From contig JBKOZS010000228.1 in NCBI GenBank assembly GCA_046726015.1, positions 1-52,299 of the forward strand: a DNA stretch of 52,299 nt. The letters are read 5' to 3'. Of the stretch, positions 2,425-52,299 are shown one piece after another; the first letter of the stretch is position 1; the number at the start of each line of letters is the position of its first letter. The notes under the pieces are model-generated. The model was not told where the DNA came from. It saw nothing but the letters and a program-made list of their open reading frames with translations, and ran no database searches. This DNA is from Acidobacteriota bacterium (lineage in GTDB: Bacteria; Acidobacteriota; Vicinamibacteria; Vicinamibacterales; 2-12-FULL-66-21). Made by a program: the position numbers and the translations under genes.

Positions 2425-3525
2425 ATGCGCCGCAATCTTCCAGTCTATTTTTGTGAGTTCGCCGGGACGGCGATCATGCTGTTTATCGGCATCAGCGCCG
2501 TGGCGTTGATGTGGGCGCCAGGGTCACCGATGCCCACGATGTCGAATCCGATGCTCCGTCGGCTCGCGACGGGCATCCTGTTCGCCGGTGGCGCGACGCT
2601 CGTCGTCTACTCGCCGCTGGGGCAGCGAAGCGGAGGACACATCAACCCCGCGGTCACGCTGGCCTTCTGGCGAATGGGCCAGGTGTCGACCCGCGATGCC
2701 GTCGCCTACGTGATCGCGCAGTTTGCGGGCGCGCTCGTTGGCGCATTTGCCGCCGGGCTCGCGTGGCGCGAGCTCACGCCAGCGATTCAATATGCCGTCA
2801 CCATACCGGGCGATGGCTATTCGACACTGTTCGCGCTGGTCGCGGAGACGATCATCACGTTCCTCCTCGTGTTCACGATTTTCGTCTGCGTGAACAAGCC
2901 GTCGATCGCCCCACGCACCGGCATCATCGCAGGGGCGCTCGTCGCCCTCCTCGTGATGGTCGAAGCGCCCGTTTCGGGCACGAGCCTTAATCCCGCGCGG
3001 TCGCTTGGACCGGCCATCATGGTGCCGCTCTATCGCGACATCTGGATCTATTTCGTGGGCCCATGCATCGGCGCGGTCATCGCCGTGGCGGCCTACACGC
3101 AGCAGTGGGGCGGTGGCACGGTGTGCGCGAAGCTCTATCACACGGAGAAATACCGCTGTCCATTCGACTGCTGCGGATATCGCCTGGTGTCCGCCGGCGA
3201 GACGGTCATGCGCCAGGGGGAACTCGGCGACGAGGCTTACGTCATCGAGCGAGGCGTCCTCGACGTGTTGCGGGATCGTGCGGGCGCGACCCCGCTCTCG
3301 CTGGCCAGGCTGAGCAAAGGGGACTGGGTCGGAGAAATCAGTTTGCTCCTTGACGAGCCCAGGTCCGCGACCGTCATCGCGGTATCGGACGCGCAGCTGC
3401 GCAGGGTCGCCAAGAAGGATTTCGGCCGCATGCTGGCCAGCGATCCCGAGCGAACACAGGAACTGCTACGGCAACTCGCTCGACACGTCAAAGAGTCGAC
3501 GAGACGCCTGGTAGAGAGGACATGA
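2425..3525 (+). CDS. MIP/aquaporin channel fused to a C-terminal cyclic-nucleotide-binding domain
   Basis: Track ORF 2344..3525; I prefer the ATG at 2425 ([22 protein letters not shown], a typical MIP N-terminus). Both NPA boxes are present ([27 protein letters not shown]). A Cys-rich linker ([10 protein letters not shown]) follows, then a cNMP-binding beta-roll with a phosphate-binding cassette ([21 protein letters not shown]). Confidence 0.85.
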
Positions 3526-15928: not shown

Positions 15929-15931
15929 TGA

Positions 15932-16007
15932 CGCCTCGCGCCTCGCGCCTCCCGCCGCGCCTCGCACCTCGCACCTCGCGCCTCGCACCTCGCGCATCGC
16001 GCCTCGG
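15932..16007 (+). repeat. tandem heptamer array (CCTCGCR)n, about 11 units
   Basis: It reads cgcctcg cgcctcg cgcctcc cgccgcg cctcgca cctcgca cctcgcg cctcgca cctcgcg catcgcg cctcgg. The plus strand is C-rich. The array ends 37 nt upstream of the M16 peptidase ATG. Confidence 0.8.
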
Positions 16008-16044: not shown

Positions 16045-18888
16045 ATGGTCCGTCTTCGCCTGCTCCCACTGATCACTCTTCTCGTCACGCTCACGCCCGT
16101 GATGCGTGCGCAGCAGGCCGCGCCTGCGCCGGCACAGCCGCCGCCCGCCTTCTCGCCGCAGGACACGATCCCGTTCGACCCGGCTGTGAAAACCGGGACG
16201 CTGGCGAACGGGCTGAAGTATTACGTGCGCAAGAACGGTCGGCCGGCCAATCGCGTGCTGCTGCGGCTCGCGGTCAAGACTGGATCGCTGCAGGAGGCGG
16301 ACGATCAGCAGGGGCTCGCGCATATGCTCGAGCACATGGCGTTCAACGGCAGCGCCCACTTCAAACCGGGTGAGCTGGTCTCCTACTTCGAATCCACCGG
16401 CGCGCGGCTCGGACCGCACGTCAATGCCTACACGAGCTTCGACGAAACGGTCTACATGCTCGACCTGCCGTCGGACAAGCCGGAGATCGTCGAAAAGGGG
16501 CTGACCGCCATGGCGGATTACGCCGGCGGCCTGACGCTCGATCCAAAGGAGATCGACAAGGAACGCGGGGTCGTCATCGAAGAGTGGCGCGGCGGCCTTG
16601 GCGCGTCATCGCGCGTCCGCGACAAGCAGATTCCTGTGTTGTATTACCACTCGCGCTACGCGGAACGCCTGCCGATCGGCAAGCCCGACATCCTGCGCAC
16701 GTTCAAGCCGGAGCGGCTCCGCGCGTACTACGACACGTTTTATCGTCCCGAGCGTATGGCGGTCGTGGCGGTTGGCGACATGGACCCGCAGAAGCTGGAG
16801 GCGGGGATCCGCGCCGCCTTCGCGGAGGTCAAGGATCGGGCGCCTGCCGCCGCCGATCCGAACATCGATGTGCCGCTTCACAAGGAAACGCTCGTCAGCG
16901 TCGTCACCGACCCCGAAGTCACGCGCTCCACGGTCAGCATCGTCCGCAAGCGCCCGAGGGAAGAGGAGTCGCGCGTGGCCGACTATCGCCGGGACCTGGT
17001 GCAGCGGTTCTTCTCAACGATGCTGAACGACCGGTTCGACGAGCTGACGCGCCGGCCTGATGCGAAGTTCCTCGGCGCGGGGATGTATAGCGGCAACCTG
17101 AGCCCCACGGTGGAAACGGTCTCGTTTGGCGTGAACGTGCAGGACGGGAAAATCCCCGAAGGTCTTACGGCGGTCGCCATCGAAGCGAAGCGTGCGCGCG
17201 AGCACGGGTTCGCGGATGCCGAGCTCGACCGTGCCAAGAAGTGGATGCTTGCCTCGTACGAGCGCGCCTACAACGAGCGCGACAAGACGGAAAGCTCGTC
17301 GTTCGCCCAGGAGTACTTGAATCACTTCCTCGAAGTGGAGCCGAGCCCCGGCATCGAGTACGAGTACAAACTGGTGCAGCAACTGCTGCCTGGCATCTCG
17401 GCGTCCGAGGTGTCGGCGATTGCCAAGACGCTGCTCGCGGACGACAGCCGCGTGGTCCTCGCGCTGACGCCGCAGAAGACGGGCGTGACGGTGCCCACGG
17501 AAGAACAGGTGCGCGCCGCGCTGGCCGCGGCGGAAAGCGCGGCCGTTACTCCCTGGCATGACACCACGTCCACGCGCGATCTGATCGAACATGTCCCCGA
17601 CCCTGCCGCCGTCACCGCACGCCGCCAGTTGCCGGACGTCGACGTCACGGTCGTCAAGTTCGCGAACGGCATCGAGGCGTGGCTGCGGCCGACGGATTTC
17701 AAGAACGACCAGGTGGTGTTCACGATGTATGCGAAGGGGGGCTCGTCGCTCGCGCCGACCGCGGATTTCGTGGAAGCATCGCTGGCCCCGGGATACGTCC
17801 GGCTGTCGGGTGCCGCAGGCCTGAAAGCGCTCGACCTGCAGAAGATGCTCGCGGGCAAGATTGCCGACGCGTCGCCGTTCATCAGCCTGTCGACACATGG
17901 ATTCTCCGGTTCCGCTTCTCCCGCGCACCTCGAGACCGCGCTGCAGCTGCTGTATGCGCGCTTCACGGCGCCCGGGGATGATCCCGAAGCGTTCGACCTG
18001 ATCAAGCGCCAGCTGACGGCCACGGTCGTCAATCGACTCGCCAATCCCGGCGTCGTATTCAGCGACAAGCTGGAAGAAGTGAACTCGTCGGGCCACTACA
18101 CGTCGCAGCCGTTGACCGTGGACCGGATCAACCAGCTCGATCGCGGCAAGATGGTCTCGTTCTACCACGACCGTTTTTCGAACGCGGCAGATTTCACGTT
18201 GTTCATGGTTGGCGCCTTCAAGGTGGACGAAGTCGTACCGCTGCTCGCGCGTTACGTCGGCACGCTGCCGTCAAAGGGGACTGGCGGGTCGACGTTCAAG
18301 GATGTCGGCATTCACTTCCCCGGCGACATCAAGCGCGCGACGGTGGAAAAGGGCAGCGAGCCCAAGAGCGAAACCGTCATCAGCTTTTTTGCGGATCCGC
18401 CGGTCGAACCGATGGAGCAGGAACGCATCAGCGCCGCGACCGACGTCCTCGAGATCTCGTTGCGCGACATCCTCCGCGAGGAACTCGGCCAGACCTACAC
18501 CGTCTCCGTTGATTCCGTGCAGCTGTTCCCGCAGAAAGGGGGCGGCAATATCGAGGTGAGCTTCGGGGCCGCTCCCGAAAACATCCAGAAAATGTCGGAG
18601 CGGGTGCTGGAGGAGGTGCGGCGGCTGCAGAAAGAAGGCCCGTCAGCGGACCTGCTGAACCGTGCGAAGGAGACCGCGCGGCGGAACTACGAAACGTCAC
18701 TGAAGCAGAACGGCTACTGGCTCGGCCGCCTGCAGTTCGTCCACATGTACGGCCAGGATCCTGCCCTGATCGTGCACCGGACCGATCGCATCGACGCGCT
18801 CACCATCCCGATGATGCAGGAGACGTTCAAGAAGTACTTCCCGCTCGATCGCCACACCGTCGTCACGCTCATGCCGGCGCCGAAGTAA
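16045..18888 (+). CDS. M16 (pitrilysin/insulinase) family zinc peptidase, double-length
   Basis: Track ORF 16015..18888; I prefer the ATG at 16045 (MVRLRLLPLITLLVTLTPVMRAQQ, a signal peptide). It has the inverted zinc motif HxxEH in GLAHMLEHMAFNGS. Its ~947 aa correspond to two M16 active/inactive domain pairs. Confidence 0.9.
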   Translation: MVRLRLLPLITLLVTLTPVMRAQQAAPAPAQPPPAFSPQDTIPFDPAVKTGTLANGLKYYVRKNGRPANRVLLRLAVKTGSLQEADDQQGLAHMLEHMAFNGSAHFKPGELVSYFESTGARLGPHVNAYTSFDETVYMLDLPSDKPEIVEKGLTAMADYAGGLTLDPKEIDKERGVVIEEWRGGLGASSRVRDKQIPVLYYHSRYAERLPIGKPDILRTFKPERLRAYYDTFYRPERMAVVAVGDMDPQKLEAGIRAAFAEVKDRAPAAADPNIDVPLHKETLVSVVTDPEVTRSTVSIVRKRPREEESRVADYRRDLVQRFFSTMLNDRFDELTRRPDAKFLGAGMYSGNLSPTVETVSFGVNVQDGKIPEGLTAVAIEAKRAREHGFADAELDRAKKWMLASYERAYNERDKTESSSFAQEYLNHFLEVEPSPGIEYEYKLVQQLLPGISASEVSAIAKTLLADDSRVVLALTPQKTGVTVPTEEQVRAALAAAESAAVTPWHDTTSTRDLIEHVPDPAAVTARRQLPDVDVTVVKFANGIEAWLRPTDFKNDQVVFTMYAKGGSSLAPTADFVEASLAPGYVRLSGAAGLKALDLQKMLAGKIADASPFISLSTHGFSGSASPAHLETALQLLYARFTAPGDDPEAFDLIKRQLTATVVNRLANPGVVFSDKLEEVNSSGHYTSQPLTVDRINQLDRGKMVSFYHDRFSNAADFTLFMVGAFKVDEVVPLLARYVGTLPSKGTGGSTFKDVGIHFPGDIKRATVEKGSEPKSETVISFFADPPVEPMEQERISAATDVLEISLRDILREELGQTYTVSVDSVQLFPQKGGGNIEVSFGAAPENIQKMSERVLEEVRRLQKEGPSADLLNRAKETARRNYETSLKQNGYWLGRLQFVHMYGQDPALIVHRTDRIDALTIPMMQETFKKYFPLDRHTVVTLMPAPK

Positions 18889-18896
18889 TTCGGCAC

Positions 18897-19013
18897 CTAC
18901 CGCCCTCCTCCGAAATGCCGAACGACTAATTCCACGATCACGACGGCTGCAAGCACTGACGTCGCGAGCGCGATCAGTACCCACATCATCATCTTCTTGT
19001 ATTCAGAGTCCAT
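18897..19013 (-). CDS. possible 38-aa single-pass membrane peptide
   Basis: Not in the track because it is under 60 aa. My translation is MDSEYKKMMMWVLIALATSVLAAVVIVELVVRHFGGGR*. An AGGA lies about 6 nt upstream of the ATG. The ATG is 21 nt from the left arm of the heptamer cassette. Confidence 0.3.
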   Translation of the reverse strand: MDSEYKKMMMWVLIALATSVLAAVVIVELVVRHFGGGR

Positions 19014-19034
19014 TTCCAGTCCTAATTATGTCTG

Positions 19035-19193
19035 ATTGGCGACTGCCGATTGCAGATTGAAGATTCACGGATTGCTGATTGTCGATTGTCGATTTGGATT
19101 GCTGATTGCGGATTGGATTGACGATTCTCGGATTGTTGATTCCCATTGCCGATTGCCGATTACGATTGTCGATTGCGATTGTCGATTGGTGAT
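19035..19193 (+). repeat. left arm: about 23 degenerate GATTGNN heptamers
   Basis: It reads (g)attggc gactgcc gattgca gattgaa gattcac ggattgct gattgtc gattgtc gatttg gattgct gattgcg gattg gattgac ... gattgtc gattggt gatc. It ends at the stop codon of the four-helix-bundle gene. Confidence 0.85.
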
Positions 19194-19613
19194 CTACTTG
19201 CGGCGGCTCGAGCGACCCGCTTCTAACATTTGCTTCCGCAGCCGTTCGCGTTCTTCTTTTCGTCGTTCTGCGGTCTTGCGGGATGAGACAAAGATGGCCA
19301 CGAGTTCGTCCGCTTCCTTGATCAGTGCGGCGGCGGCTTCCTGCGTCGTAAAGCCGCTCCGGACGAGCAATTCCAACCAGCCCTTCGACTCATCCGCCTC
19401 CTCCGCAGCCACGCCCACCTTCGCGATGAATTCGTCGGGAGATCGCGCCCGACACGTTGCCCGGTAGTTGCTGTCCGTGGCGCCGGCCGAGTCGGTGAGC
19501 TGTTCGACGATCTGCCGGCAGGCCTTCGCGTCAGGTAGCTGTTCACAGAACTTGATCACCTGCGCCGCAAACTTCTGAGTGCGCTCTTGAAGCTCCAGGG
19601 CTTTTGGATTCAT
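19194..19613 (-). CDS. four-helix-bundle protein (23S rRNA intervening-sequence protein / Avd family)
   Basis: 139 aa. QLTDSAGATDSNYRATCRARSPDEFIAKVGVAAEEADESKGWLELL fits the family core (QL.RS..S...N..EA....S..DF..K......E..E...WL.L). Confidence 0.85.
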   Translation of the reverse strand: MNPKALELQERTQKFAAQVIKFCEQLPDAKACRQIVEQLTDSAGATDSNYRATCRARSPDEFIAKVGVAAEEADESKGWLELLVRSGFTTQEAAAALIKEADELVAIFVSSRKTAERRKEERERLRKQMLEAGRSSRRK

Positions 19614-19689
19614 GCCCTGGACATTGCATGGCGCACGCCACTGATCAAACGGGCCGATTTTCCGGCGATCGGCAGGAATTCCAAGTCGA

Positions 19690-19847
19690 ATTGCTGCAAT
19701 TTCCCCAATCCAATCCCCAATCGAAAATCAAGAAATCTCCAATCGTCAATCTCCAATCGCCAATCTCAATCCACAATCGTCAATCCCAATCATCAATCGA
19801 CAGTCGCCAATCCGTGAATCGGCAATCTGCAGTCGGCAATCGCCAAT
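19690..19847 (+). repeat. right arm: NNCAATC heptamers, inverted copy of the left arm
   Basis: It reads ...ccccaatc caatcc ccaatcg aaaatca ... ctccaatcg tcaatct ccaatcg ccaatct caatcca caatcg tcaatcc caatcat caatcga cagtcgc caatccgtgaatcgg caatctg cagtcgg caatcgc caat. By hand, the reverse complement of the outer 54 nt matches the outer 54 nt of the left arm at 47 positions. The arm ends 20 nt before the SSF gene ATG. Confidence 0.85.
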
Positions 19848-19866
19848 GTGCTAAGGTGGCTCCCCG

Positions 19867-21375
19867 ATGGGCTTTTCCACGATTGATTACATCGTCCTTC
19901 TTACGTATCTCGTGGGCATCACGGTCTTCGGGATGCAGTTCAAGAAGTCACATAAAAGCGTCAAAGACTATTTCGTCGGTGCGCGGAACACCCACTGGAT
20001 CATCATCTGCCTTTCGATCGTCGCCACCGAGACGAGCACGCTGACGCTCATCGGCGTTCCGGCGCTCGCCTACGCGAACTTTGCCAGGCCGGAACAGGGC
20101 GGCACGCTGACCTACCTCCAGGTGCTGATCGGCTACGTCGTCGGCCGGTTCATCATCGCCAGACTGTTCCTGCCGTCGTACTTCCGCGGTGAACTGCTGA
20201 CCGCGTATGCGCTGCTCGAGCAGCGGTTCGGGTCGGCAGCGCGCCACGTGGCCGCGTCGCTCTTTCTCGTGATGCGGGCGCTCGCGGAGGGAGTCCGCGT
20301 GTTTGCCGCGTCGCTGGTGCTGTCCGCCGTCCTCGCTTCGAGCTTCCCCGGCATCCCGCACCTGTGGCTGTGGTCGATCGCGCTCGTTGGCGTGCTGACG
20401 CTGATTTACACGTTCGAGGGGGGCATTGCCGCGGTCATCTGGACCGATCTGATCCAGTTCGTCATCTACATAGGCGGATCGCTGCTGGCGGCGTACCAGC
20501 TCCTGCACCTGACGCCGGGAGGCTGGCGTGGAATCGTCGAGACGGCCTCCGTGGCAGGCAAGCTCCAGGTGTTGTCGTTTTCGACGGACCTGACGGTGCC
20601 GTTTACGTTCTGGGCGGGCGTGATTGGCGGCACCTTCCTGACGAACGCGAGCCACGGGACCGATCAGCTGCTGGTGCAGCGGCTGCTCACGTGCAAGAAC
20701 CTGCGCGATAGCCAGAAGGCAATCATCACCAGCGGCTTCATCGTGCTGGGGCAGTTCGTGCTGTTCCTTGGCATCGGGATCATGCTGTTCGCGTATTACC
20801 AGTCGGTGCCGCAGCCCGCGATCACGACCAACGACGAAATCTTCCCGCGCTTCATCGTGACCACGCTGCCGCACGGCGTATCCGGCCTGGTCATTGCGGC
20901 GATTTTCGCCGCCGCGATGTCGAATCTCAGTGGATCACTGAACTCGCTGGCCTCGACAACCGTTATTGACTTCTATCAGCCGCTTGCCGGCGGCAACGTG
21001 CCCGACCGCCGCCTGCTGGCGCTGTCGCGGTGGTGCACGGCCGCCTGGGGCGTCGTGTTGATCCTCATCGCGGTCGTCGCGCGGGGCTGGGGTTCCGTGT
21101 TCACCGCGGGGCTCACCGTCGCGTCGATCGTCTATGGACCGATGCTGGGCGCCTTCGTGCTCGGCGTGTTGACGAACCGCGCGAATGCGACCGGTGTGAT
21201 CGCGGGCATGGCAGTGTCGTCCGCATCAATGATCGTGATCTGGGCGACCACGAAGCTCGCGTGGACGTGGTACGTGCTCGTGGGATTTGCGATCTGCTGG
21301 ATGGTGGGGTACCTGGTCAGCATGGTGACCGCGCAGGTCAGCCAGGCCGCACAAACCGAAGGAAGGCAGGCATAG
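19867..21375 (+). CDS. sodium:solute symporter (SSF) family transporter
   Basis: 502 aa, polytopic. The N-terminus DYIVLLTYLVGITVFG...KSVKDYFVGARN and the overall pattern are typical of SSF permeases. Confidence 0.85.
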   Translation: MGFSTIDYIVLLTYLVGITVFGMQFKKSHKSVKDYFVGARNTHWIIICLSIVATETSTLTLIGVPALAYANFARPEQGGTLTYLQVLIGYVVGRFIIARLFLPSYFRGELLTAYALLEQRFGSAARHVAASLFLVMRALAEGVRVFAASLVLSAVLASSFPGIPHLWLWSIALVGVLTLIYTFEGGIAAVIWTDLIQFVIYIGGSLLAAYQLLHLTPGGWRGIVETASVAGKLQVLSFSTDLTVPFTFWAGVIGGTFLTNASHGTDQLLVQRLLTCKNLRDSQKAIITSGFIVLGQFVLFLGIGIMLFAYYQSVPQPAITTNDEIFPRFIVTTLPHGVSGLVIAAIFAAAMSNLSGSLNSLASTTVIDFYQPLAGGNVPDRRLLALSRWCTAAWGVVLILIAVVARGWGSVFTAGLTVASIVYGPMLGAFVLGVLTNRANATGVIAGMAVSSASMIVIWATTKLAWTWYVLVGFAICWMVGYLVSMVTAQVSQAAQTEGRQA

Positions 21376-23853: not shown

Positions 23854-26619
23854 TTACCGCGGCACGATCGTCGTGTCGTTGGTCGGCGCGCCCGGCGCCT
23901 TCGTCAGGTACTGCGCGGGGCTGATGACGATCTGGTCGATGAAGATGCCGTCTTCGCGCTGTTGAATGCGAAGTGTCTGAGGCCCCGCCTGGGAAAACGT
24001 GACGGGGGCCGCAACGCTTGCCCACCCCGCGTCGTTCCAGCCCCACCCCGCAATCGGTGCGCCGCTGAAGTCCTGCAGGACGACCGCCGCTGCATCCTGC
24101 GTTCCGATCCGCGCGACCGGTTGAGCCGAGGCATCGACGGCGCCGCTGAACTGCACGTACACGGAATCGTTGGACGCCGAGTTGCGATCCGCGCGCATCC
24201 GCAGCCAGACCTGGTATGAAACGCCGGCCTGGGCGTTGAACGGCACGTCCACGAACGACGCGGGGGAGGCCAGCGCCGTAGCAATCTTTGGCGCGCCGAG
24301 ATCCGCGTTCGAAAGGGCCACCCCGCCGGCAGCGGTCGTGTCTTCCGCCAGTGTCCACCTGCCGTGAATGTTCGCGGATGGAACGTCTGCCGCGAACACG
24401 ACAATCTCTCGAGGTGTGGTTGCGCCGGCCTGCGGCGTCGTCAGAATAGTCGAGTCGTTCTTCAGCGACCCCGGAGCACGGGACAGGTAGTTGCGCGCGG
24501 AGAGGACGACTTGATCGATGGAGATGCCGTCTTCGCGCGTCTGAATCCGGATGGTGTGCGGTCCTGGTTGCGAGAAGGTCACGATCGGGCCGAGCGCACC
24601 CGCGCCCCAGCCGTTGTCCTGCCATCCCCATCCCGAGAGCCCGCAGCGGTCGCAGTCCTCGAGATTCACGGTCGTGGCCGACGTGGTTCCACCGCGCCAC
24701 ACCGGTGCGCCGGCGGCATCCACGCTGTCGCTGAACTGCACGAAGACGGAATCGATGTTCCACGCATTGGATTCCGCTTTCCCGCGCAGCCACAGGCGGT
24801 ACGTTTTTCCCGCGTCCGCAACGAAGGTCAGCTCGAAGTAGTTGAGGGGACTGGCCAGCGCCGAGGAGAGCTTCGCTGCGCCCGCGTTGGGATGGACCAG
24901 GAGCGCACCACTCGCTGCGGCGGGATCTGCCACGCGGCGCCACGCACCCGCGACCTTCGTTGCGTCAACCGCGAACAGGACGATCTCGTCGTTCACCGCA
25001 GCTGTCCGCTCGTGCGCGCCGATATCGTAGCCTGCCCCGTGGGGAAGGGGCGCGCCGTAGAAGTCAGAACTCCCACTCGAGACACCGAACCGGGCCGCGA
25101 GGTCGAGTCCGGCATCGATCATGGCGGATCCGTCGCGCAGCTGATACGCGTCGATGCTCTCCAGCCGATCCGCATCGTCCAGTGTCGCGCCAGCCCCGGC
25201 GGCGTTCAGTTGCGGATCGACGGAGAACCCGGTTGCAACGCCTGCAACCATCTCCTGGCCTGAGTTCCGCCAGTCGGCAACCGTGCCGTACGTCGAGGTT
25301 CCCCAGAGAAGCCGCAGGCCACTGCCGCTCGCGTAGTAATTGTTCCCCTCGAAGCGGACGTTGGTCGACGAAACCTGGCTGGCGCTCACATCGATCACGG
25401 GAAGTCCACCTGAGGTGATCAGGATGTTGTTACGAATGCGCAATGCCGTGACCCGCCGGTCGGGTGCTCCAGCATTCCACACGCGAATCGCGGACGGGCG
25501 CCCGCTCAACGCCGGCGAGACGAAGACGGTGTTGTTGTAAATGTCCGCGTCAATCGTCCTGCCCCACACTTCGATGCCCGCGTACGAGTTCTTCCGGCCG
25601 TCGTTCTGAGAGATGTTGTACCGGACCACGTTCGCGCGATGGGTATCATTCGCGGGCGCATGGGCGAGGAGGTAGCCGGCGCCGTCGTTGTCGTGCGAGT
25701 AGTTGTACTGAAGCACGGAGTTGGAGACGTTCTGATCGAGATCGAACCCGCCACCATCGGCCGAACTTGCGGTGTGGTTGTCGTAGGACTCGTTGTGCTG
25801 AATCACCACGTCGTTCGAGTCATACGTCCAGATACCGACGGGCCCGCCGACGGTCGCGCACAGGCGGCCATTGCCGTGCGCGACCGAGCGTTCGATGACA
25901 CCGCCACTCACGCCCGAAAGCACGATGCCGCTCCCCGTATTCGACGTCGCGGCGGGGATGCCCGGATTGTCGTACGCGCGCACGTGACCCACGTACACCT
26001 GCTCGTGGCTGCCCGCTAATTGCGCGTAGACGAAGATGCCGGTGCGCGCGTTGCCATGTGTCGAGGCGTTCGTGATGCGAACGTCGCGGAACCCGGCGTG
26101 ATTGTTCCAGGCGCCGATCTCGATGCCGTCGCGACCGAATCCGCTGACGTCGACAGTGTCGATACGCACGTAGGACGACTTCGCATCGGCTGCGAGATCA
26201 CTATAGAAGACGATACCGCTGGCGGTTCCGCCATCGCCGACGAGCGTGAGGTTGGAAATGGCGTATCCCGCGGCGTTGTAGACAGAAATTCCGGCGCCCG
26301 TTCCGGCGGCAATCGTCGCGCGCCCCGTTCCATACGATGTGATCGTGATAGGAGACGTGGAGGATCCGGCATCTCCCGCGTCGAACGCCATCCCTCCGCT
26401 GAAGGTGTCGCCACCACGGAGCAACACGCGATCGCCCGGCAACAGACGCACCGAGTTCAGACGGGCGAACGATTGCCATGGCGCCGCAGGCGAGGTGCCC
26501 GCATTCGCGTCGTTGCCAGCCAGGCTGATGTAGTAATCAGCCGCATATGTCGGGGAAGCAAGCGCAAAGACACAGAGTAAGAGAGCGTACGCGTAAATGG
26601 GTCGCTTGAGGAGCAGCAC
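23854..26619 (-). CDS. secreted right-handed parallel beta-helix protein with two C-terminal ~190-aa CBM-like modules
   Basis: 921 aa with a signal peptide (LLLCVFALASPTYA). The N-terminus YYISLAGNDANAGTSPAAPWQSF is typical of beta-helix (pectate-lyase-fold) proteins. It has repeated NxxxG/HDN turns. The C-terminus holds two paralogous modules, each beginning EIV(L/V)FA and ending ...GWGW.D.GW...TFS..GP.T.RIQ.REDG..IDQ.V.S. Confidence 0.8.
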   Translation of the reverse strand: MLLLKRPIYAYALLLCVFALASPTYAADYYISLAGNDANAGTSPAAPWQSFARLNSVRLLPGDRVLLRGGDTFSGGMAFDAGDAGSSTSPITITSYGTGRATIAAGTGAGISVYNAAGYAISNLTLVGDGGTASGIVFYSDLAADAKSSYVRIDTVDVSGFGRDGIEIGAWNNHAGFRDVRITNASTHGNARTGIFVYAQLAGSHEQVYVGHVRAYDNPGIPAATSNTGSGIVLSGVSGGVIERSVAHGNGRLCATVGGPVGIWTYDSNDVVIQHNESYDNHTASSADGGGFDLDQNVSNSVLQYNYSHDNDGAGYLLAHAPANDTHRANVVRYNISQNDGRKNSYAGIEVWGRTIDADIYNNTVFVSPALSGRPSAIRVWNAGAPDRRVTALRIRNNILITSGGLPVIDVSASQVSSTNVRFEGNNYYASGSGLRLLWGTSTYGTVADWRNSGQEMVAGVATGFSVDPQLNAAGAGATLDDADRLESIDAYQLRDGSAMIDAGLDLAARFGVSSGSSDFYGAPLPHGAGYDIGAHERTAAVNDEIVLFAVDATKVAGAWRRVADPAAASGALLVHPNAGAAKLSSALASPLNYFELTFVADAGKTYRLWLRGKAESNAWNIDSVFVQFSDSVDAAGAPVWRGGTTSATTVNLEDCDRCGLSGWGWQDNGWGAGALGPIVTFSQPGPHTIRIQTREDGISIDQVVLSARNYLSRAPGSLKNDSTILTTPQAGATTPREIVVFAADVPSANIHGRWTLAEDTTAAGGVALSNADLGAPKIATALASPASFVDVPFNAQAGVSYQVWLRMRADRNSASNDSVYVQFSGAVDASAQPVARIGTQDAAAVVLQDFSGAPIAGWGWNDAGWASVAAPVTFSQAGPQTLRIQQREDGIFIDQIVISPAQYLTKAPGAPTNDTTIVPR

Positions 26620-26767
26620 AACACCTCACACCGGTGAACGTCAGTAAACGTCGAATGTCGTGAGAACGCCCCGCTGTAAAGCAAGGCTCTGACCGCGCTG
26701 GCGTCAGTCCGTAACATGTTGTAAACGCGGGTGATAGCGAACTGGCGCCTCGCGAATGACTCTCGGG

Positions 26768-26788
26768 GTGACGTCGTCACATGACGAC
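26768..26788. promoter_or_regulatory. overlapping palindromes upstream of the copper module (candidate operator)
   Basis: In gtgacgtcgtcacatgacgac, GTGAC-gtc-GTCAC overlaps GTCGTCA-ca-TGACGAC (a 7-bp perfect inverted repeat). It lies about 55 nt upstream of the ATG at 26844, and a TAAGAT box lies 8 nt upstream of that ATG. No binding protein is identified. Confidence 0.3.
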
Positions 26789-26843
26789 ACGACGGCACTC
26801 GCGCCCGAGCTCTCGACGAGCGCGAGTGCTAAGATCGGCAGAG

Positions 26844-27227
26844 ATGTCCCGCGTCGCCTCACTCGTGCTGGCGTGCCTGGTTGCGCTCTCGCCCATCCTC
26901 GGAGGAGAGTGTCGGCTGCGCTGCCATCACCAGGTCGCGTGTCACGACGAATCGAGTTCGACGTCTGCGGACGCGCCGTGTCATGAACCAGCGGACGCGC
27001 TGAACCCTGTCGCGACGGCTGCGCGCAGCGCATGCCAGGCCCCCTCGTCTGCAGCCCCTGCGCTGCGCCCCTCGAACGACACGTCGCTTCGAACGGACTC
27101 CGCATCGGCACCGATTAGCGCGAATCACCTGGTCATGACGGTCGCGGGATCGACTGCAACGGCGGTAGTTCCGCCGGGCTCCGCTCTCCACGCTGCTGGC
27201 GTTCATTCGACTCCTCTGCGCCTGTAA
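26844..27227 (+). CDS. small secreted Cys/His-rich protein (putative metal-binding)
   Basis: Track ORF 26781..27227; I prefer the ATG at 26844 (MSRVASLVLACLVALSPILGG, signal-like). A cluster ECRLRCHHQVACHDE...APCHEP follows. It sits at the head of the copper module. Confidence 0.45.
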   Translation: MSRVASLVLACLVALSPILGGECRLRCHHQVACHDESSSTSADAPCHEPADALNPVATAARSACQAPSSAAPALRPSNDTSLRTDSASAPISANHLVMTVAGSTATAVVPPGSALHAAGVHSTPLRL

Positions 27228-27233
27228 AGACAA

Positions 27234-27258
27234 GCGCCTCACCTGATCGCTGAGGCGC
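27234..27258 (+). terminator. stem-loop after the small Cys/His gene
   Basis: gcgcctca-cctgatcgc-tgaggcgc forms an 8-bp perfect stem. It is followed by a pyrimidine-rich stretch (gttgtccctctcttttcc). Confidence 0.4.
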
Positions 27259-27355
27259 AGGTTGTCCCTCTCTTTTCCGCAGCCTGCTAATTCCAGCCAT
27301 CGGTTCGGTCACCACTGATGGCCGCGCACGGGTCGCGCGTTGGGGAGAATCACTC

Positions 27356-28600
27356 ATGTTTCGTTCGATCGGCGGGTACACCGCGGCAGCACTGCTGCTG
27401 TTCGGCACGGCGCACGCAGACGCCCAGGAGGCAGGGCATCAACAGCACCACATGCAGTCGACTGGCTCCGAGTGGACGTTCATGCAGGATGGAATCGTCT
27501 ACGGCCTCTTCAATCACCAGGGAGGACCGCGTGGGGGAGACGAATTCAAGGTGCCCAACTGGTGGATGGGAATGTGGTCGCGTCCAACCGGCAAATCACA
27601 GCTCACGTTGACGACGATGTTGAGCCTGGATGCGGCGACAGTGGGCACGCGTGGCTATGGCGAGATCTTCCAGGTGGGCGAGGCCGTTGACGACCGTCCG
27701 CTGGTGGACCGCCAGCATCCGCACGACCTGTTCATGCAACTCGCGGCGATCTGGCGCGTGCCGTTGAGCGACCGAACGGGGCTCACGCTCGCGGGTGCGC
27801 CATCAGGCGAGCCGGCTCTTGGGCCTGTTGCCTTCATGCATCGACCATCGGCGGCGGACATACCGTTGGCGCCGCTGGGTCATCACACCTTCGATTCAAC
27901 GCACGTCGCCTTCGGCGTCGTCACGGCGGCGGTCGATCGCGGGCCGTGGACCTTCGAGGGATCCGTGTTCAACGGGCGAGAGCCGGACCAGGATCGATGG
28001 AACTTCGATTTCGGCAGAATGGACTCCGTTTCTGGCCGGATCTGGTTCAAGCCGAACGCAAACTGGGATCTCCAGGTCTCGACCGGGCATCTCAAGGATC
28101 CAGAAGAACTCGAACCCGGCAACATTCAGCGCACGACCGCATCCGTCGCCTGGATGAACCGCGGCACTGACGACTTCAGCGCCGTCACGGTCGGGTATGG
28201 CGTCAACAATACCGATCACGGCACGCGGCACGCCGTGTTTGCAGAGGGCACGCGCAGCTTCAGCATGGCGGCCGTGTTCGGGCGGGCCGAGGTCGTCCAG
28301 GTGGAAACGGCACTGCTGCTGAGCGGGCAGGTCCATTCCGAGCTGAGCGCCAGGAGCGATACCGTCGGGGCCTTTACGGTGGGCGCCGTGCGCGATCTGC
28401 CACACTGGCGAGGATTCGAGGCGGGCCTTGGAGCCGGCGTGACGCTTTACGCCGTGCCCGGGATCTTGAAGCCGACACATGGATCGAGGCCGGTGTCGTT
28501 CCAGGTCTTTTTCCGCGTACGCCCGCCGGTCAGCCGGATGGGGCGAATGTGGAACATGCGCATGTCGGCGCCGGTCAATCACGCCATGCGGCATGAATGA
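27356..28600 (+). CDS. His-rich periplasmic/outer-membrane-like protein associated with the Cu ATPase
   Basis: 414 aa with a signal peptide ([15 protein letters not shown]). The mature N-terminus is [11 protein letters not shown]. It has a DRQHPHD block, alternating beta-like segments and a His/Met-rich tail ([17 protein letters not shown]). Its stop overlaps the ATPase ATG (ATGA). The fold assignment is an inference. Confidence 0.55.
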
Positions 28601-34517: not shown

Positions 34518-34571
34518 CCTCGGGCCTCGGCCCTCGACGCGCCTCGCGCCTCGCACATCGCACATCGCGCC
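34518..34571 (+). repeat. second CCTCGSN heptamer array
   Basis: It reads cctcggg cctcggc cctcgac gcg cctcgcg cctcgca catcgca catcgcg cc. The unit and orientation are the same as at 15932..16007. It starts 15 nt after the MerR stop and ends 39 nt before the SPFH ATG. Confidence 0.7.
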
Positions 34572-47800: not shown

Positions 47801-50800
47801 CCCCGGCCGACATCGTGTATGGGACGACGCTCACCGCGGCGCAGCTCAATGCGACCTCGAACGTGCCTGGAACGTTCGCGTATACGCCGTCGCTGGGAAC
47901 GCATCTGTCCGCCGGACTTGCTCAGACGTTGTCGGTGACCTTCACACCGAACGACGCGTCGAGCTGGGACATTGCCACAGCCTTCGTCGCCATCAACGTG
48001 CTCAAGGCGACGCCAACGATTACCTGGCCGGAACCGGGTGCGATCTCGTTCGGCACGGTGCTGACGAACGTCCAGTTGAATGCGACCGCGAGCGTGAGGG
48101 GCACGTTTGCGTATTCGCCGGCCGGCGGCGCCGTGCTCGCGCCGGGCCTCAAGACACTGTCGGTGACCTTTACGCCAGACGACCCGGCGAACTACAGCAG
48201 CGCGACCGCGACGGTGCGGCTGACAGTGGTCAAGGGAACGCCGGACATCACCTGGCCCGACCCCGCCAATATCCCGTACGGGACGCTGCTCGGTCCGGCG
48301 CAGCTCAATGCGACGAGTACCGTTCCCGGAACGTTTACGTACGATCCGCCCGCAGGCACGAAATTGCCGGCTGGCCCTGGGCAGACGCTGTCGGTCACCT
48401 TCACCCCCGAGGATCCGGCGAGCTACAACACCGCGACCGCAACCGTCGCGATTGCGGTGACCAAGGGCGCACCGACCATTACGTGGCCGACGCCCGCGGC
48501 GATCTCGTATGGCACGGCGCTCAGCGCGACGCAGCTGAATGCCACGGCAAACGTGCCCGGCACCTTTACGTATTCGCCCGCTGCAGGGACGATCCTGAAC
48601 GTCGGAGCGCGGCAGCAGCTTTCGGTGACGTTCACGCCGACCGATACGGTCAACTACATCGCCGCCACGGCGACCGTGTCCATTGACGTGCTGAAGGCCA
48701 CACCCGTCATCACGTGGCCGACACCCGCGGCAATCTCGTATGGCACGGCGCTCAGCGCGACGCAGCTGAACGCCACCGCGAACACGCCAGGAACGTTCGT
48801 CTACACCCCTGCGGCTGGCACGGTTCTCAATGCGGGAGTTGGACAGACGCTGTCCGTGACATTTACGCCGAGCGATACGGTCAACTACGACACCGTGACA
48901 GCGACCGTGTCCATCGACGTGCTGAAGGCCACACCCGTGATCACGTGGCCGACGCCGGCGGCGATCTCATACGGCACGGCGCTCAGTGCGACGCAGTTGA
49001 ACGCCACCGCGAACACGTCAGGAACGTTCGTCTACAACCCCGCGGCGGGCGCGGTCCTCAATGCGGGAGTGGGGCAGACGCTGTCGGTGACGTTCACGCC
49101 GGCGGATGCGGCGAACTACACCACCGCAACCGCAACCGTGCTGATTACTGTCGACAAGGGGACGCCGGTCATCACCTGGCCAACGCCGGCAGGCATCACA
49201 TATGGAACGGCGCTGGGCGCGACGCAACTCAATGCGACAGCGAACGTCCCTGGCACGTTCGTCTACACGCCGCCGGCTGGAACGGTCCTCTCGGCCGGTA
49301 CCGGACAGTCGCTCTCGGTCAGCTTTACGCCGAACGACGCGGTCAACTACAACACCGCGGCGGCGATGGTGCACATCGACGTCATCAGGGCAACGCCGGC
49401 GATCACCTGGGCGCCGCCTGCAGCGATCACGTACGGCACGGCCCTGAGCGCCACGCAGCTGAACGCCACCGCGGTGATTCCTGGAACGTTCGTCTACACG
49501 CCAGCTCTGGACGCGTTACTCAATGCGGGTGCGGCACAGACGTTGTCGGTCACGTTCACGCCGCAGGATGCGGTCAACTACACCACCGGCACCGCGAGCG
49601 TTTCTATCGAGGTGCTGAGGGCCACGCCGACGATCACGTGGGCGACGCCAACCGACATCGTCTATGGCACGGCGCTGAGCACGACGCAGTTGAACGCGAC
49701 CTCGAGCGTCGCCGGGACGTTCGCATATGCACCGGCGGCTGGCACCGTGTTGAACGCCGGAGCGGCGCAGACGCTCTCCGTCACGTTCACGCCGACCGAT
49801 GCGGCGAACTACACCACGGCAACGAAGACGGTCAGCATCACCGTGCTGAAGGCCACGCCGACGATCACGTGGCCGACGCCGGCCGACATCGTCTATGGCA
49901 CGGCGCTGAGTGCGACGCAATTGAATGCAACCTCGAGCGTGCCGGGAACGTTCGAGTATTCGCCGACCGCGGGCACGCTGTTGAACGCCGGAGCCGCGCA
50001 GACGCTCTCCGTCACGTTCACGCCGACCGATGCGGCAAACTACACCACGGCAACGAAGACGGTCAGCATCACGGTGCTGAAGGCGACGCCAACGATCGTC
50101 TGGCCGACGCCGGCGGACATTTTTTATGGCACCGCGCTCGGCGCGACGCAGCTGAACGCCTCCGCCACCGGCGTTCAGGGGACGTTCGCCTACACGCCGG
50201 CGGCGGGTGTGCTGCTGAATGCGGGTGCGGGACAGACGCTTTCGGTCACGTTCACACCGACTGACGGTGCGAACTACACGACAGCGACGAAGACGGTCAG
50301 CATCACCGTGCTGAAGGCGACCCCGACGATTACCTGGCCAACCCCGGCGGACATCGTCTATGGCACGGCGCTCAGCACGACACAGCTCAACGCGACGGCA
50401 AGCGTGCCCGGCACGTTCGTGTATGCACAGGCCGCGGGCACGGTGCTGAACGCCGGTGCGGTGCAGACACTCTCCGTCAGCTTTACGCCGACAGACGCCG
50501 TGAACTACACCGGTGCTACGGCGAGCGTGGCGATCACCGTGCTGAAGGCCACGCCGACGATCGTCTGGCCGACACCCGCGGACATCGTCTATGGCACCGC
50601 GCTCAGCGCCACGCAGCTGAATGCCTCCGTCGCAGGCGTCACGGGGACGTTCGTCTACACGCCGGCGGCCGGTGTGGTGCTGAATGCGAGTGCTGCGCAG
50701 ACCTTGTCGGTCACGTTTACACCGAACGAGACGGCGAACTACACGACAGCGACGAAGACGGTCACCATTAATGTGCTGAAGGCGACGCCAACGATCACCT

Positions 50801-52299
50801 GGCCGACGCCCGCGGACATCGTCTATGGCACCGCCCTGAGCGCAACGCAGCTCAACGCGACGACGAGCATACCCGGCACGTTCGTGTATTCACCGGCCGC
50901 CGGCGCGGTGCTGAACGCCGGTGCGGCACAGACACTCTCCGTTACGTTTACGCCGACGGACGCCGTGAACTACACCGGCGCCACCGCCAGCGTGGCGATC
51001 ACCGTGCTGAAGGCGACGCCAACGATCACCTGGCCGACGCCCGCGGACATCATCTATGGCACCGTGCTCGGTGCGACGCAGCTCAACGCGACCGCCAGTG
51101 TGCCGGGCACGTTCGTGTATGCGCCGGCGGCTGGCGTGGTGCTGAACGCTGGTGCGGCGCAGGCGCTGTCTGTCTCGTTCACGCCGACGGACGCGGCGAA
51201 TTACAACTCCGCGACCGCCACCGTCTTGATCAACGTGCTCAAGGGCACGCCGACGATCACGTGGCCGACGCCCGCCGACATCGTTTATGGCACCGCACTC
51301 GGTGCGACGCAGCTCAACGCGACGGCCAGTGTGACGGGCACGTTCGTGTATACGCCCGCTGCCGGCATCGTGCTCGACGCCGGGACGCACCAGCTTTCGC
51401 TGGCGTTCACGCCGACCGATGCGGCGAACTACAACGCGGCAACCGCGAGCGTCTCGATTAAGGTCCTGAAGGCGACCCCGACGATCGCCTGGGCGACACT
51501 GGCGGACATCATTTACGGCACTGCGCTGAGCGCGGCGCACCTGAATGCCACCGCCAACGTGCCGGGCAGCTTCGTCTACACGCCCGCCGCCGGGACCGTG
51601 CTCGATGCCGGGACGCACCAGCTGTCACTCGCGTTCACGGCGACGGATGCCACCAATTACACCGCCGCGACTGCGACCGTCAGCCTCAACGTGCTCAAGG
51701 CGACGCCGACGATCACGTGGGCGACGCCGGCGGACATCACGTATGGCACGGCGCTGAGCCCGACGCAGTTGAATGCGACGTCGACTGCGCCGGGCAGCTT
51801 CGTCTACACCCCGGCGGCCGGCACCGTGCTTGATGCCGGGACGCACAGCCTGTCGCTGACCTTTACGCCGACGGATGCGGTCAATTACACCGGCGCGACG
51901 GCCACGGTCTCGATCACCGTGCTCAAGGCGACGCCGACGATCACGTGGGCGACGCCGGCCGACATCACGTATGGCACAGCGCTGAGCCCGACGCAGTTGA
52001 ATGCGACGTCGACTGTGCCGGGCAGCTTCGTCTATACGCCGGCCGCCGGCACCGTGCTTGATGCCGGGACGCACAGCCTGTCGCTGACCTTCACGGCGAC
52101 GGATGCGACGAATTACACGGGCGCGACGGCCACGGTCTCGATCAACGTGCTCAAGGCGACGCCGACGATCACGTGGGCAACGCCGGCGGACACGTCGTAT
52201 GGCACGGCGCTGACCCCGACGCATTTGAATGCGACGTCGACTGTTCCGGGCAGCTTCGTCTACACGCCGGCTGCCGGAATCGTGCTTGATGCCGGGACG
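41848..52299 (+). CDS. giant secreted multidomain repeat protein (>3,484 aa, open at the window end)
   Basis: Absent from the ORF track because there is no stop. No plus-strand ORF is listed in this frame anywhere after 41793, where an in-frame TAG lies, and my translation is continuous to 52299. The start is uncertain: GTG at 41848 (GGAAGGGA upstream) or GTG at 41812. Order of elements:
- signal peptide ([23 protein letters not shown]);
- ~690-aa N-terminal domain;
- a P10 linker at 43939..43968;
- ~90-aa module ([26 protein letters not shown]...);
- a second Pro-rich linker;
- ~200-aa module;
- 3 Ig-like units;
- ~450-aa unassigned domain;
- two Big_7-like Ig domains ([11 protein letters not shown]...[10 protein letters not shown]...[15 protein letters not shown] and [11 protein letters not shown]...[10 protein letters not shown]...[14 protein letters not shown]);
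- ~20.5 tandem units. Confidence 0.85.
   Translation, partial: [3484 protein letters not shown]
44902..45585 (+). repeat. first block of 3 Ig-like units (in-frame coding repeat)
   Basis: P(P/T)[38 protein letters not shown]..., then [39 protein letters not shown]..., then [39 protein letters not shown]... The consensus is the same as in the main array. Confidence 0.8.
47548..52299 (+). repeat. tandem array of ~20.5 coding units of 228-234 bp (76-78 aa), continuing past the window
   Basis: Unit consensus: [77 protein letters not shown]. Measured unit starts (gtgct.aag) at 49843, 50074, 50308, 51691, 51919 and 52147 give periods of 231, 234, 228 and 228. It has an Ig-like/MBG-like feel (conserved YG, NAT, GTF.Y, LSVTF.P.D..NY). 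No family is assigned. Confidence 0.85.

Follow-up and report, generated by a model that had tools for sequence, protein, structure and literature searches.

A gene for a 139-aa four-helix-bundle protein of the PF05635/TIGR02436 family lies on contig JBKOZS010000228.1 of an Acidobacteriota bacterium (assembly GCA_046726015.1), held between two inverted arrays of degenerate heptamers. We refer to the full 52,299 nt of this contig, numbered on the plus strand, as the window, and to the gene with its leader and its two arrays (the arms) as the cassette; the parts are collected in Table 1 with other features of the window. The left arm is downstream of the gene and directly against its stop codon, and the right arm begins 76 nt before the ATG. 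An initial annotation, made by inspection of the letters, had drawn this layout as an open reading frame (ORF) in a hairpin loop placed between ordinary genes, with about 23 degenerate heptamers on the left and the same array, read as CAATC, on the right. Our analysis recovered all of these elements: terminal inverted repeats are present, and the ORF is in the loop between them.

Table 1. Positions of the cassette, its parts and other features of the window
Feature	Position	Strand	Description
Whole cassette	19034..19848		~815 bp; gene and leader between inverted heptamer arrays
Left arm	19034..19193	no strand	23 tandem units, GATTG core plus ~2 variable nt, read on the plus strand
Four-helix-bundle protein gene, 139 aa	19194..19613	minus	PF05635 / TIGR02436 profile matches
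Leader, 76 nt between upstream arm and ATG	19614..19689	minus	presumed site of the gene's own promoter
Right arm	19690..19848	no strand	22 units reading NNCAATC on the plus strand; inverted copy of left arm
Transmembrane ORF, conserved, 37–39 aa (38 here)	18897..19013	minus	host gene, present in cassette-free genomes too
Sodium:solute symporter (SSF)	19867..21375	plus	host gene, ATG 18–19 nt from right arm tip
Single heptamer array, CGCCTCG/CACCTCG x11	15932..16006		directly after stop codon, upstream of M16 peptidase gene
Single intergenic array, CCTCGGC, CGCGCCT and CGCACAT units	34518..34571		15 nt after stop codon

Arms, gene and insertion site

The 23 GATTG-type cores of the left arm, which begin at 19034/5, are spaced mostly at 7 nt (15 intervals), with the other intervals at 6 nt (4), 8 nt (2) and 5 nt (1). 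Aligned from their outer tips, the arms match at 47 of the outermost 54 nt, exactly the count given in the initial annotation. Over the outer 81 nt the ungapped match in register is 83–84%, against 64% and 62% when one arm is shifted by 7 nt in either direction. The two arms also agree in the order of their odd-length units: the fifth is the 8-nt gattcacg, the ninth has 6 nt, and the twelfth has 5 or 6 nt. Because this order is shared, the arms represent, for at least 12 units, a genuine inverted duplication, and not merely two arrays of the same motif. The copies later diverged mainly at the two variable (NN) positions, in keeping with the earlier description of cores that stay in register while the NN positions drift deeper in.

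A search for three consecutive GATTGNN units, with at most two mismatches, gave 18 matches across the window where 0.1 were expected, and all 18 lie within the two arms. The NN positions carry 0.04 and 0.41 bits in these arms and the GATTG core is conserved, a contrast that is partly one of ascertainment, since units were called by their match to GATTG. A conserved core with free NN positions goes beyond selection for pairing alone, and suggests a sequence-specific constraint on the core.

The 139-aa protein matches the PF05635 profile over residues 5–107 (53.1 bits, cut-off 33.8) and the NCBIfam profile TIGR02436 (76 bits, cut-off 24). Its closest entry in the PDB is 2RLD (E = 1.7e-9, residues 8–116), which contains five chains. 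A basic C-terminal tail of about 30 residues (~110–139) is rich in R and K. The ratio of nonsynonymous to synonymous substitution (dN/dS) against orthologues is 0.12–0.13 (L001, L006) and 0.20 (L013), with synonymous sites near saturation, and judged by these ratios the gene is functional and under purifying selection. The protein matches no known defence family in PADLOC. Because both orientations of the gene persist in relatives, as described below, the promoter should lie within the loop, in the leader. When we aligned leaders by eye, the only recurring elements were a short 'ATGCAATGTCC' before the ATG and 'GCGAC' after the arm, and no promoter could be assigned.

The genes around the cassette are ordinary chromosomal ones: an M16 peptidase, the 38-aa membrane ORF, the SSF transporter, a MacB/FtsX permease, an Nramp transporter, a pseudouridine synthase and a P-type ATPase. 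The initial annotation had proposed looking for empty sites between orthologues of the M16 and SSF genes, and these exist. Three related genomes (L149, L150 and L151; SSF 85, 81 and 78% identical) keep the order of M16 peptidase, small ORF, SSF and FtsX without the cassette, and their spacers between small ORF and SSF are 87, 9 and 44 nt long, with neither a PF05635 gene nor heptamers. In two others (L001 and L006) the cassette occupies the M16/SSF site, just as in the window. Since the cassette sits where related genomes have a spacer of 9–87 nt, it is a discrete, acquired insertion unit. Its presence among relatives is sporadic, as is that of the intervening sequences (IVSs) of rRNA genes.

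The claim that no reverse transcriptase, rRNA or transposase is nearby also held: there was no reverse transcriptase, transposase or integrase among the neighboring proteins scanned, no Rfam family, rRNA included, at the gathering threshold over the whole window, and nothing relevant at a permissive Rfam threshold around the cassette. We rejected a diversity-generating retroelement (DGR), as there is no reverse transcriptase among the neighbors and no pair of template and variable repeats, the only repeats being the heptamer arms.

The arm tips stand close to the neighboring start codons, as had been noted, with the ATG of the small transmembrane ORF about 20 nt from the left tip. With only 18–20 nt between each tip and the neighboring ATG, this geometry implies that both neighbors would be transcribed from or through the cassette.

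Recurrence across sites and phyla

Close relatives of the protein (64–78% identity) are found in other spacers, with GATTGNN arrays upstream and NNCAATC arrays downstream, so that the further arm-plus-gene units anticipated by the initial annotation are present both at the M16/SSF site and elsewhere. One such site lies between the convergent genes for prfB and PBP1A (L005/L007, L009–L011, L013, L165, L167), another between the genes for PBP1A and a TonB receptor (L166, with loss of the downstream arm), and a third between a PhoR-like histidine kinase and a PHO4 transporter (L012, L014). The outer ~40 nt of the arms are alike between sites: the window, L005 and L012 all show GATTGCCGATTCACNGGATTG, for example, and the tips in L013 share this likeness.

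The gene can be lost, leaving a hairpin. At a distance of 2.3 kb from its cassette, L013 has a hairpin that lacks the gene, with arms of ~160 nt around a ~65-nt loop and a 3' tip that is identical to the cassette tip at 38 of 39 positions, and L011 has a solitary arm at the PBP1A site. The copy number that we saw is one in the window, and one full plus one gene-less copy within 8 kb in L013.

The orientation of the gene varies as well. At the prfB/PBP1A site it points the same way as prfB in five genomes and shares the direction of PBP1A in L013; at the kinase/PHO4 site it runs with the kinase in L012, and in L014 with PHO4. These flips would be explained most simply by recombination of the inverted arms with each other. 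A site-specific invertible switch was considered and set aside: no recombinase is nearby, and only in comparisons between genomes do the inversions appear. In the protein database, most homologues come from contigs of about 1 kb, as expected if heptamer arrays break short-read assemblies.

Beyond these close relatives, we read or scored 33 loci of the family, on genome contigs (L005–L021), plasmids (L143–L148) and viral contigs (L153–L164). Inverted arms scored above all 40 shuffles in 31 of the 33, and the best lag was 7 nt in 26. Loci with arms span at least nine bacterial phyla in addition to viral contigs, including loci from Acidobacteriota, Cyanobacteriota, Bacteroidota, Chloroflexota, Spirochaetota, Verrucomicrobiota, Nitrospirota and Ignavibacteriota. 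In many phyla, then, a stand-alone PF05635 gene normally sits in the heptamer-arm layout. The initial annotation had presented the cassette as an undescribed element. This holds insofar as no paper in the published literature that we searched links the PF05635/TIGR02436 family to heptamer repeats; the element is not, however, peculiar to this locus.

The repeat unit differs from lineage to lineage. GATTGNN is used in Acidobacteriota, in a metagenome-assembled genome (MAG) of Anaerolineaceae, in Nostoc flagelliforme and on several viral contigs; GTCGGAG in Nostoc punctiforme; GGATGTS in a Bacteroidetes MAG (L017); GAAAGNG in Treponema; ATGAGGT in a Verrucomicrobiales MAG; a TACGAAT-type unit in Ignavibacteria and one viral contig; and GAACGTA, GAATAAT, GGGTAAA and GGATAAT on other viral contigs. 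Unit similarity tracks protein identity (Mantel r = 0.41, 0 of 2000 permutations), also when close relatives are removed (r = 0.20, 29 of 2000 permutations). By this comparison the repeat unit co-diverges with the protein, and arms and gene travel together. A single viral contig of 42.6 kb (IMGVR_UViG_3300001528_001028) holds two paralogous cassettes (L159 and L163) with the units GAACGTA and GAATAAT. Behind the array of L159, and likewise in the related L162, come a GC hairpin and a promoter-like leader, TTGACT...TTTTAT.

Period-7 arrays are concentrated at the gene. In 24 loci covering 188 kb, 46 of 55 such arrays fall within 400 nt of it, a zone that makes up 15% of the bases (~29-fold enrichment), and on two complete plasmids (30.8 and 38.6 kb) they occur only at the gene or at most 2.4 kb from it. 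The arms have a polarity, too. An inverted repeat reads alike on both strands, so just two polarities are possible, and the 5' arm has more G than C in 28 loci, more C than G in one, and is tied in two.

Cassettes often interrupt defence operons (BREX-like, DISARM and DUF1156-HEPN). One lies between drmD and MmeI within a defence operon of Planktothrix (L145), others lie between the DUF1156 and Swt1-HEPN genes of Chlorohelix and Gloeocapsa plasmids (L147, L168), and one lies between an Eco57I-type methylase and PglZ on a viral contig (L153). On the Gloeocapsa plasmid pGLO7428.03 (L168, 9863–10093) there are also three arrays (CAATCAAAAATC-type, GATTTTA-type and again CAATCAAAAATC-type) within the annotated DUF1156 coding sequence, which are either an in-frame hairpin insert or the result of a mis-annotated start. 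A screen for CRISPR association lists '23S rRNA IVP' among the proteins linked to CRISPR adaptation modules (PMC10910872); we speculate that flanking heptamer arrays may be mis-called as CRISPR-like repeats.

Arrays without the gene and pairing of the arms

The initial annotation had asked whether GATTGNN arrays and PF05635 genes co-occur. In one direction they do, as the gene almost always has arrays; in the other they do not, as arrays occur without the gene. A metagenome scan for four consecutive GATTGNN units gave at least 120 matches, those listed not being a fair sample. Most of the matches are AT-rich contigs that end in homogeneous GGGGATT/CCCCAAT, a confounder, as this is the ciliate-type telomere repeat, whose unit coincides with GATTGNN at NN = GG. 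These rumen-type contigs (in L023–L142) are 1–2.7 kb long, with terminal GGGGATT/CCCCAAT runs head to head (e.g. L063 at 121–206 and 1257–1340). To judge from these ends they look like ciliate gene-sized chromosomes with telomeres, and their head-to-head joins resemble assembly artefacts. The GC-rich (non-ciliate) arrays among the matches listed numbered 21; a PF05635 gene was adjacent to none of these, and one had the gene 6 kb away. They are intergenic, and several are gene-less hairpins, such as the one between gcvH and gcvP in L043.

The window itself has two further heptamer arrays (Table 1), for neither of which an inverted partner was found (within 1 kb, for the array at 34518–34571). 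The region of L151 that is orthologous to the first of them (223–488) has about 25 copies of GGTCGTT, so that the same site holds an unrelated unit. Arrays very often begin 0–5 nt after the upstream stop codon, as at 15929 and 34500 in the window and in L005, L009–L014, L024, L035, L043, L106 and L132.

The RNA of 19020–19860 (841 nt) folds at -367 kcal/mol, whereas its dinucleotide shuffles give -293 ± 7.7 (z = -9.6). For the two arms by themselves, cofolding gives -163 as plus-strand RNA and -169 as gene-sense RNA, compared with -139 ± 6 when the order of units in one arm is shuffled. It follows that the shared 5-nt core supplies most of the stability, the true register adding a smaller share. 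Accordingly, the stem proposed at the outset stood up to the shuffled controls that had been suggested for it, but only its outer ~80 nt are truly in register. A G-quadruplex was rejected, as GATTGNN has no G-tracts.

Two other stretches of the window drew our attention. Between the FtsX permease and the P-type ATPase (23854–28600) are a gene for a 921-aa beta-helix protein and a 414-aa ORF, both absent from L149 (7466–7628), which marks a further indel. From 48379 to 52271, and so up to the end of the window, runs a tandem repeat with a period of 231/462 nt and about 17 copies at 76–77% identity, probably a repetitive surface-protein gene.

Interpretation of the cassette

With somewhat more confidence than doubt, we read the cassette as an IVS-like, self-insulating hairpin with arms made of heptameric simple sequence repeats (SSRs). 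The closest known systems are the ORF-bearing 23S rRNA IVSs of Leptospira and Coxiella burnetii, which likewise have a PF05635 protein in the loop, the family being named after the IVS protein. In both, terminal inverted repeats form a stem around an ORF, and the distribution is sporadic and acquired. In the 428-nt Coxiella IVS an S23p ORF goes with a terminal stem of 28 bp; RNase III removes the element, which was acquired horizontally and is believed to be selfish; IVSs are regarded as selfish inserts that are tolerated inside a transcription unit (PMC4990558). The cassette differs in that it lies between the M16 peptidase/small ORF and SSF genes and outside any rRNA gene, the place of an IVS being helix 25 or 45 of a 23S rRNA gene; in that its arms are ~160 nt of heptamer repeats and not a unique 28-bp stem; and in that its gene is intact and under purifying selection, whereas the Coxiella S23p is decaying.

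Among bacterial tandem repeats, those with a 7-nt unit expand most readily, and slippage around a conserved core would thus make the arms longer or shorter. We propose that the arms may act as a two-way transcriptional insulator, with which the gene could sit in operons, intergenic spacers or rRNA. Given the polarity, a transcript that enters from outside makes the G/U-rich arm first and the C/A-rich arm last. In such a transcript (here read-through from M16 to SSF on the plus strand), the G/U-rich arm would pair with the later C/A-rich arm, and the resulting interrupted duplex of ~150 bp, with the gene in its loop, would be a substrate of the RNase III type, as in an IVS. Whichever way it runs, a transcript born in the loop would exit by an unpaired array that is rich in C and poor in G (~33% C and 15% G for the exit array of the window), a rut-like look-alike of a Rho loading site. 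The conserved 5-nt core could be bound by a factor, for which the cassette's own basic-tailed protein would be the best candidate. Insulation in both directions would account for the tolerance of the cassette within operons and rRNA.

Several observations weigh against this reading. A scan of 18800–20000 for sigma-70-like promoters and intrinsic terminators found none. Arm mismatches counted over 14 loci are not biased to either strand with regard to G.U: next to 1336 matches, the sense RNA could accommodate 65 of the mismatches as G.U and the antisense RNA 55, and 177 are transversions. The overall complementarity of the arms in these loci, 82%, is about the level that the shared 5-of-7 core gives on its own. 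The mismatch pattern thus offers no positive evidence of selection for RNA pairing of the arms. The simple gene-in-loop form is common but not obligatory: the arrays of Bernardetia (L146) are direct and not inverted, Chlorohelix has a ~105-nt hairpin unit directly repeated on both flanks, Planktothrix and Treponema have nested hairpins, and L166 keeps the upstream arm and the gene with only ~20 nt of the downstream arm (3031–3060). Gene-less arrays, the two in the window among them, mean that heptamer arrays need no gene in cis. No convincing target-site duplication was seen at the junctions of the window, L001, L005 and L013, and no mobilising enzyme for the cassette was identified. Finally, we infer the RNase III cleavage, the Rho termination and the position of the promoter, as we do the binding of the repeats by the protein.

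The most serious rival, which we nevertheless hold to be doubtful, makes the partnership of protein and repeat primary and the hairpin secondary. A pentameric four-helix bundle would bind the tandem 5-nt cores, one per subunit, and this binding would regulate the gene itself or its neighbors, or else maintain or spread the cognate arrays in the manner of RAYTs and REPINs. The contrast between the conserved core and the free NN positions despite an old inverted duplication speaks for it, although the information in the core is inflated by the way in which units were called. So do the co-divergence of unit and protein, with two units on one viral contig; the gene-less arrays and hairpins that carry the cassette's unit near cassettes (L013, L011) and elsewhere; and the basic tail of the protein. 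Relatives are homopentameric, and Avd binds nucleic acid (PMC4990558, PMC10053308). It is less easily squared with the lack of a further GATTG array in the window and with the 21 non-ciliate arrays among the matches listed, none of which has the gene beside it and one of which has it at 6 kb. The protein is, moreover, neither a nuclease nor a recombinase, and would be unable to spread repeats alone.

Known systems offer partial parallels to such a partnership. PF05635 resembles Avd, the accessory protein of DGRs and a basic pentamer that binds nucleic acid (PMC10053308), and the two have a homologous four-helix-bundle fold. In REPIN-RAYT systems (PMC3116915), too, a single gene is flanked by cognate hairpin-forming repeats and gene-less hairpins occur elsewhere; the cassette, in contrast, has no HUH/Y1 (RAYT) transposase, and the only gene flanked is PF05635, for a small helical protein. 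The cassette's copy number appears low next to that of REPIN-RAYT and Correia/NEMIS elements, its arms are tandem repeats and not a unique palindrome, and no target-site duplication was seen. Correia elements are processed by RNase III when co-transcribed, and can carry outward promoters. The ring proteins TRAP and HutP bind spaced triplets, and offer a precedent for a small oligomeric protein that reads a short core with a free spacer of 2–3 nt; their fold differs from that of the cassette protein, and the likeness is one of analogy only.

An unlikely alternative, to which we give less credence than to a partnership, is a purely DNA-level element without an RNA role: a cargo-carrying unit like a MITE (miniature inverted-repeat transposable element), with arrays that are its terminal inverted repeats and that an enzyme acting in trans, or else homologous recombination, had moved. 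The likeness to a MITE lies in terminal inverted repeats that are conserved between copies, here the outer ~40 nt in the window, L005, L012 and L013. Several sites of insertion with these conserved tips, the empty sites in relatives, the gene-less derivative with a near-identical tip in one genome (L013), the interior inversions that indicate recombination between arms, and the arm mismatches without strand bias all fit such an element. A recognizable target-site duplication and a nearby transposase or integrase do not accompany them, however, and the few sites used in the clade, together with the saturated synonymous divergence between copies, indicate that movement is rare. It also leaves unexplained the 28:1 polarity of the arms and the topology shared with IVSs that are processed by RNase III.

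We think it less probable still that the arms serve the neighbors, their outward tips supplying a promoter or ribosome-binding site to the small ORF and the SSF gene, as the initial annotation had entertained. The 18–20 nt left to each ATG, and the fact that the ancestral divergent spacer of 44–87 nt was split, which requires transcription from or through the cassette, agree with this, as do a CATAAT hexamer on the side of the small ORF and an AAGGTGG motif resembling a ribosome-binding site before SSF, both conserved in L001 and L006. Both motifs, however, are in the site-specific flank outside the arms and are absent at other insertion sites, the consensus promoter scan was empty, and sites between convergent genes offer no gene to drive. 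That ordinary heptamer microsatellites expanded by coincidence on both sides of an unrelated gene is effectively refuted, for although heptameric SSRs are common in bacteria (PMC4692102) and the window has two other heptamer arrays, inverted arms recur in 31 of 33 loci across phyla, the density of arrays rises ~29-fold within 400 nt of the gene, the two arms keep register and have odd-length units in common, and the cassette's unit differs from the genome's other arrays.

Returning to the IVS-like hairpin that we favor, its arms belong to a known class of repeat. Heptamers are the most over-represented long SSRs in bacteria, with polymerase slippage proposed as the cause; Xanthomonas has 186 GGGAATC arrays, which include 70 pairs that are inverted and convergent, and GGGGA(T/C)T arrays are found in Nostoc 7120, with no association with a gene mentioned (PMC4692102). 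TAACTGA heptamers have been reported in Beggiatoaceae (PMC4679880). Like the arms of the cassette, these heptameric SSRs, among them the short tandemly repeated repetitive sequences (STRRs) of cyanobacteria, are intergenic 7-nt tandem units whose length varies between relatives and whose convergent pairs can form hairpins, and the GGGAATC pairs share the cassette's polarity, G-rich on the plus and then on the minus strand (PMC4692102). Inverted pairs built of heptamers were thus already known in Xanthomonas, without this gene, which amends the reading of the initial annotation. Published reports of heptameric SSRs draw no link to a gene, whereas the repeats of the cassette bracket one gene family, and co-diverge with it, across phyla.

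ORF-bearing IVSs and inverted heptamer pairs are each known, and it is their union, the polarity rule and the inversions that appear to be new. To our knowledge PF05635/TIGR02436 is a large family of unknown function, known only from rRNA IVSs and, distantly, from the Avd of DGRs. STRRs within an RNase P RNA helix were reportedly described by Vioque in 1997. We put forward, as a tentative proposal that we regard as rather improbable as a whole, that stand-alone PF05635/TIGR02436 proteins are dedicated partners of heptameric (STRR-type) arrays whose 5-nt core they recognize, that gene and arrays together form a hitherto unrecognized class of phylum-spanning, invertible, self-insulating hairpin cassettes, and that 23S IVSs are the special case of such cassettes in rRNA. 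A gene between inverted heptamer arrays of fixed polarity ties the puzzle of PF05635 to that of the abundant, unexplained heptamer repeats, and makes both testable. If true, the proposal of dedicated partners would give a function to the PF05635 family, and also to heptamer repeats that have been unexplained since 1990.

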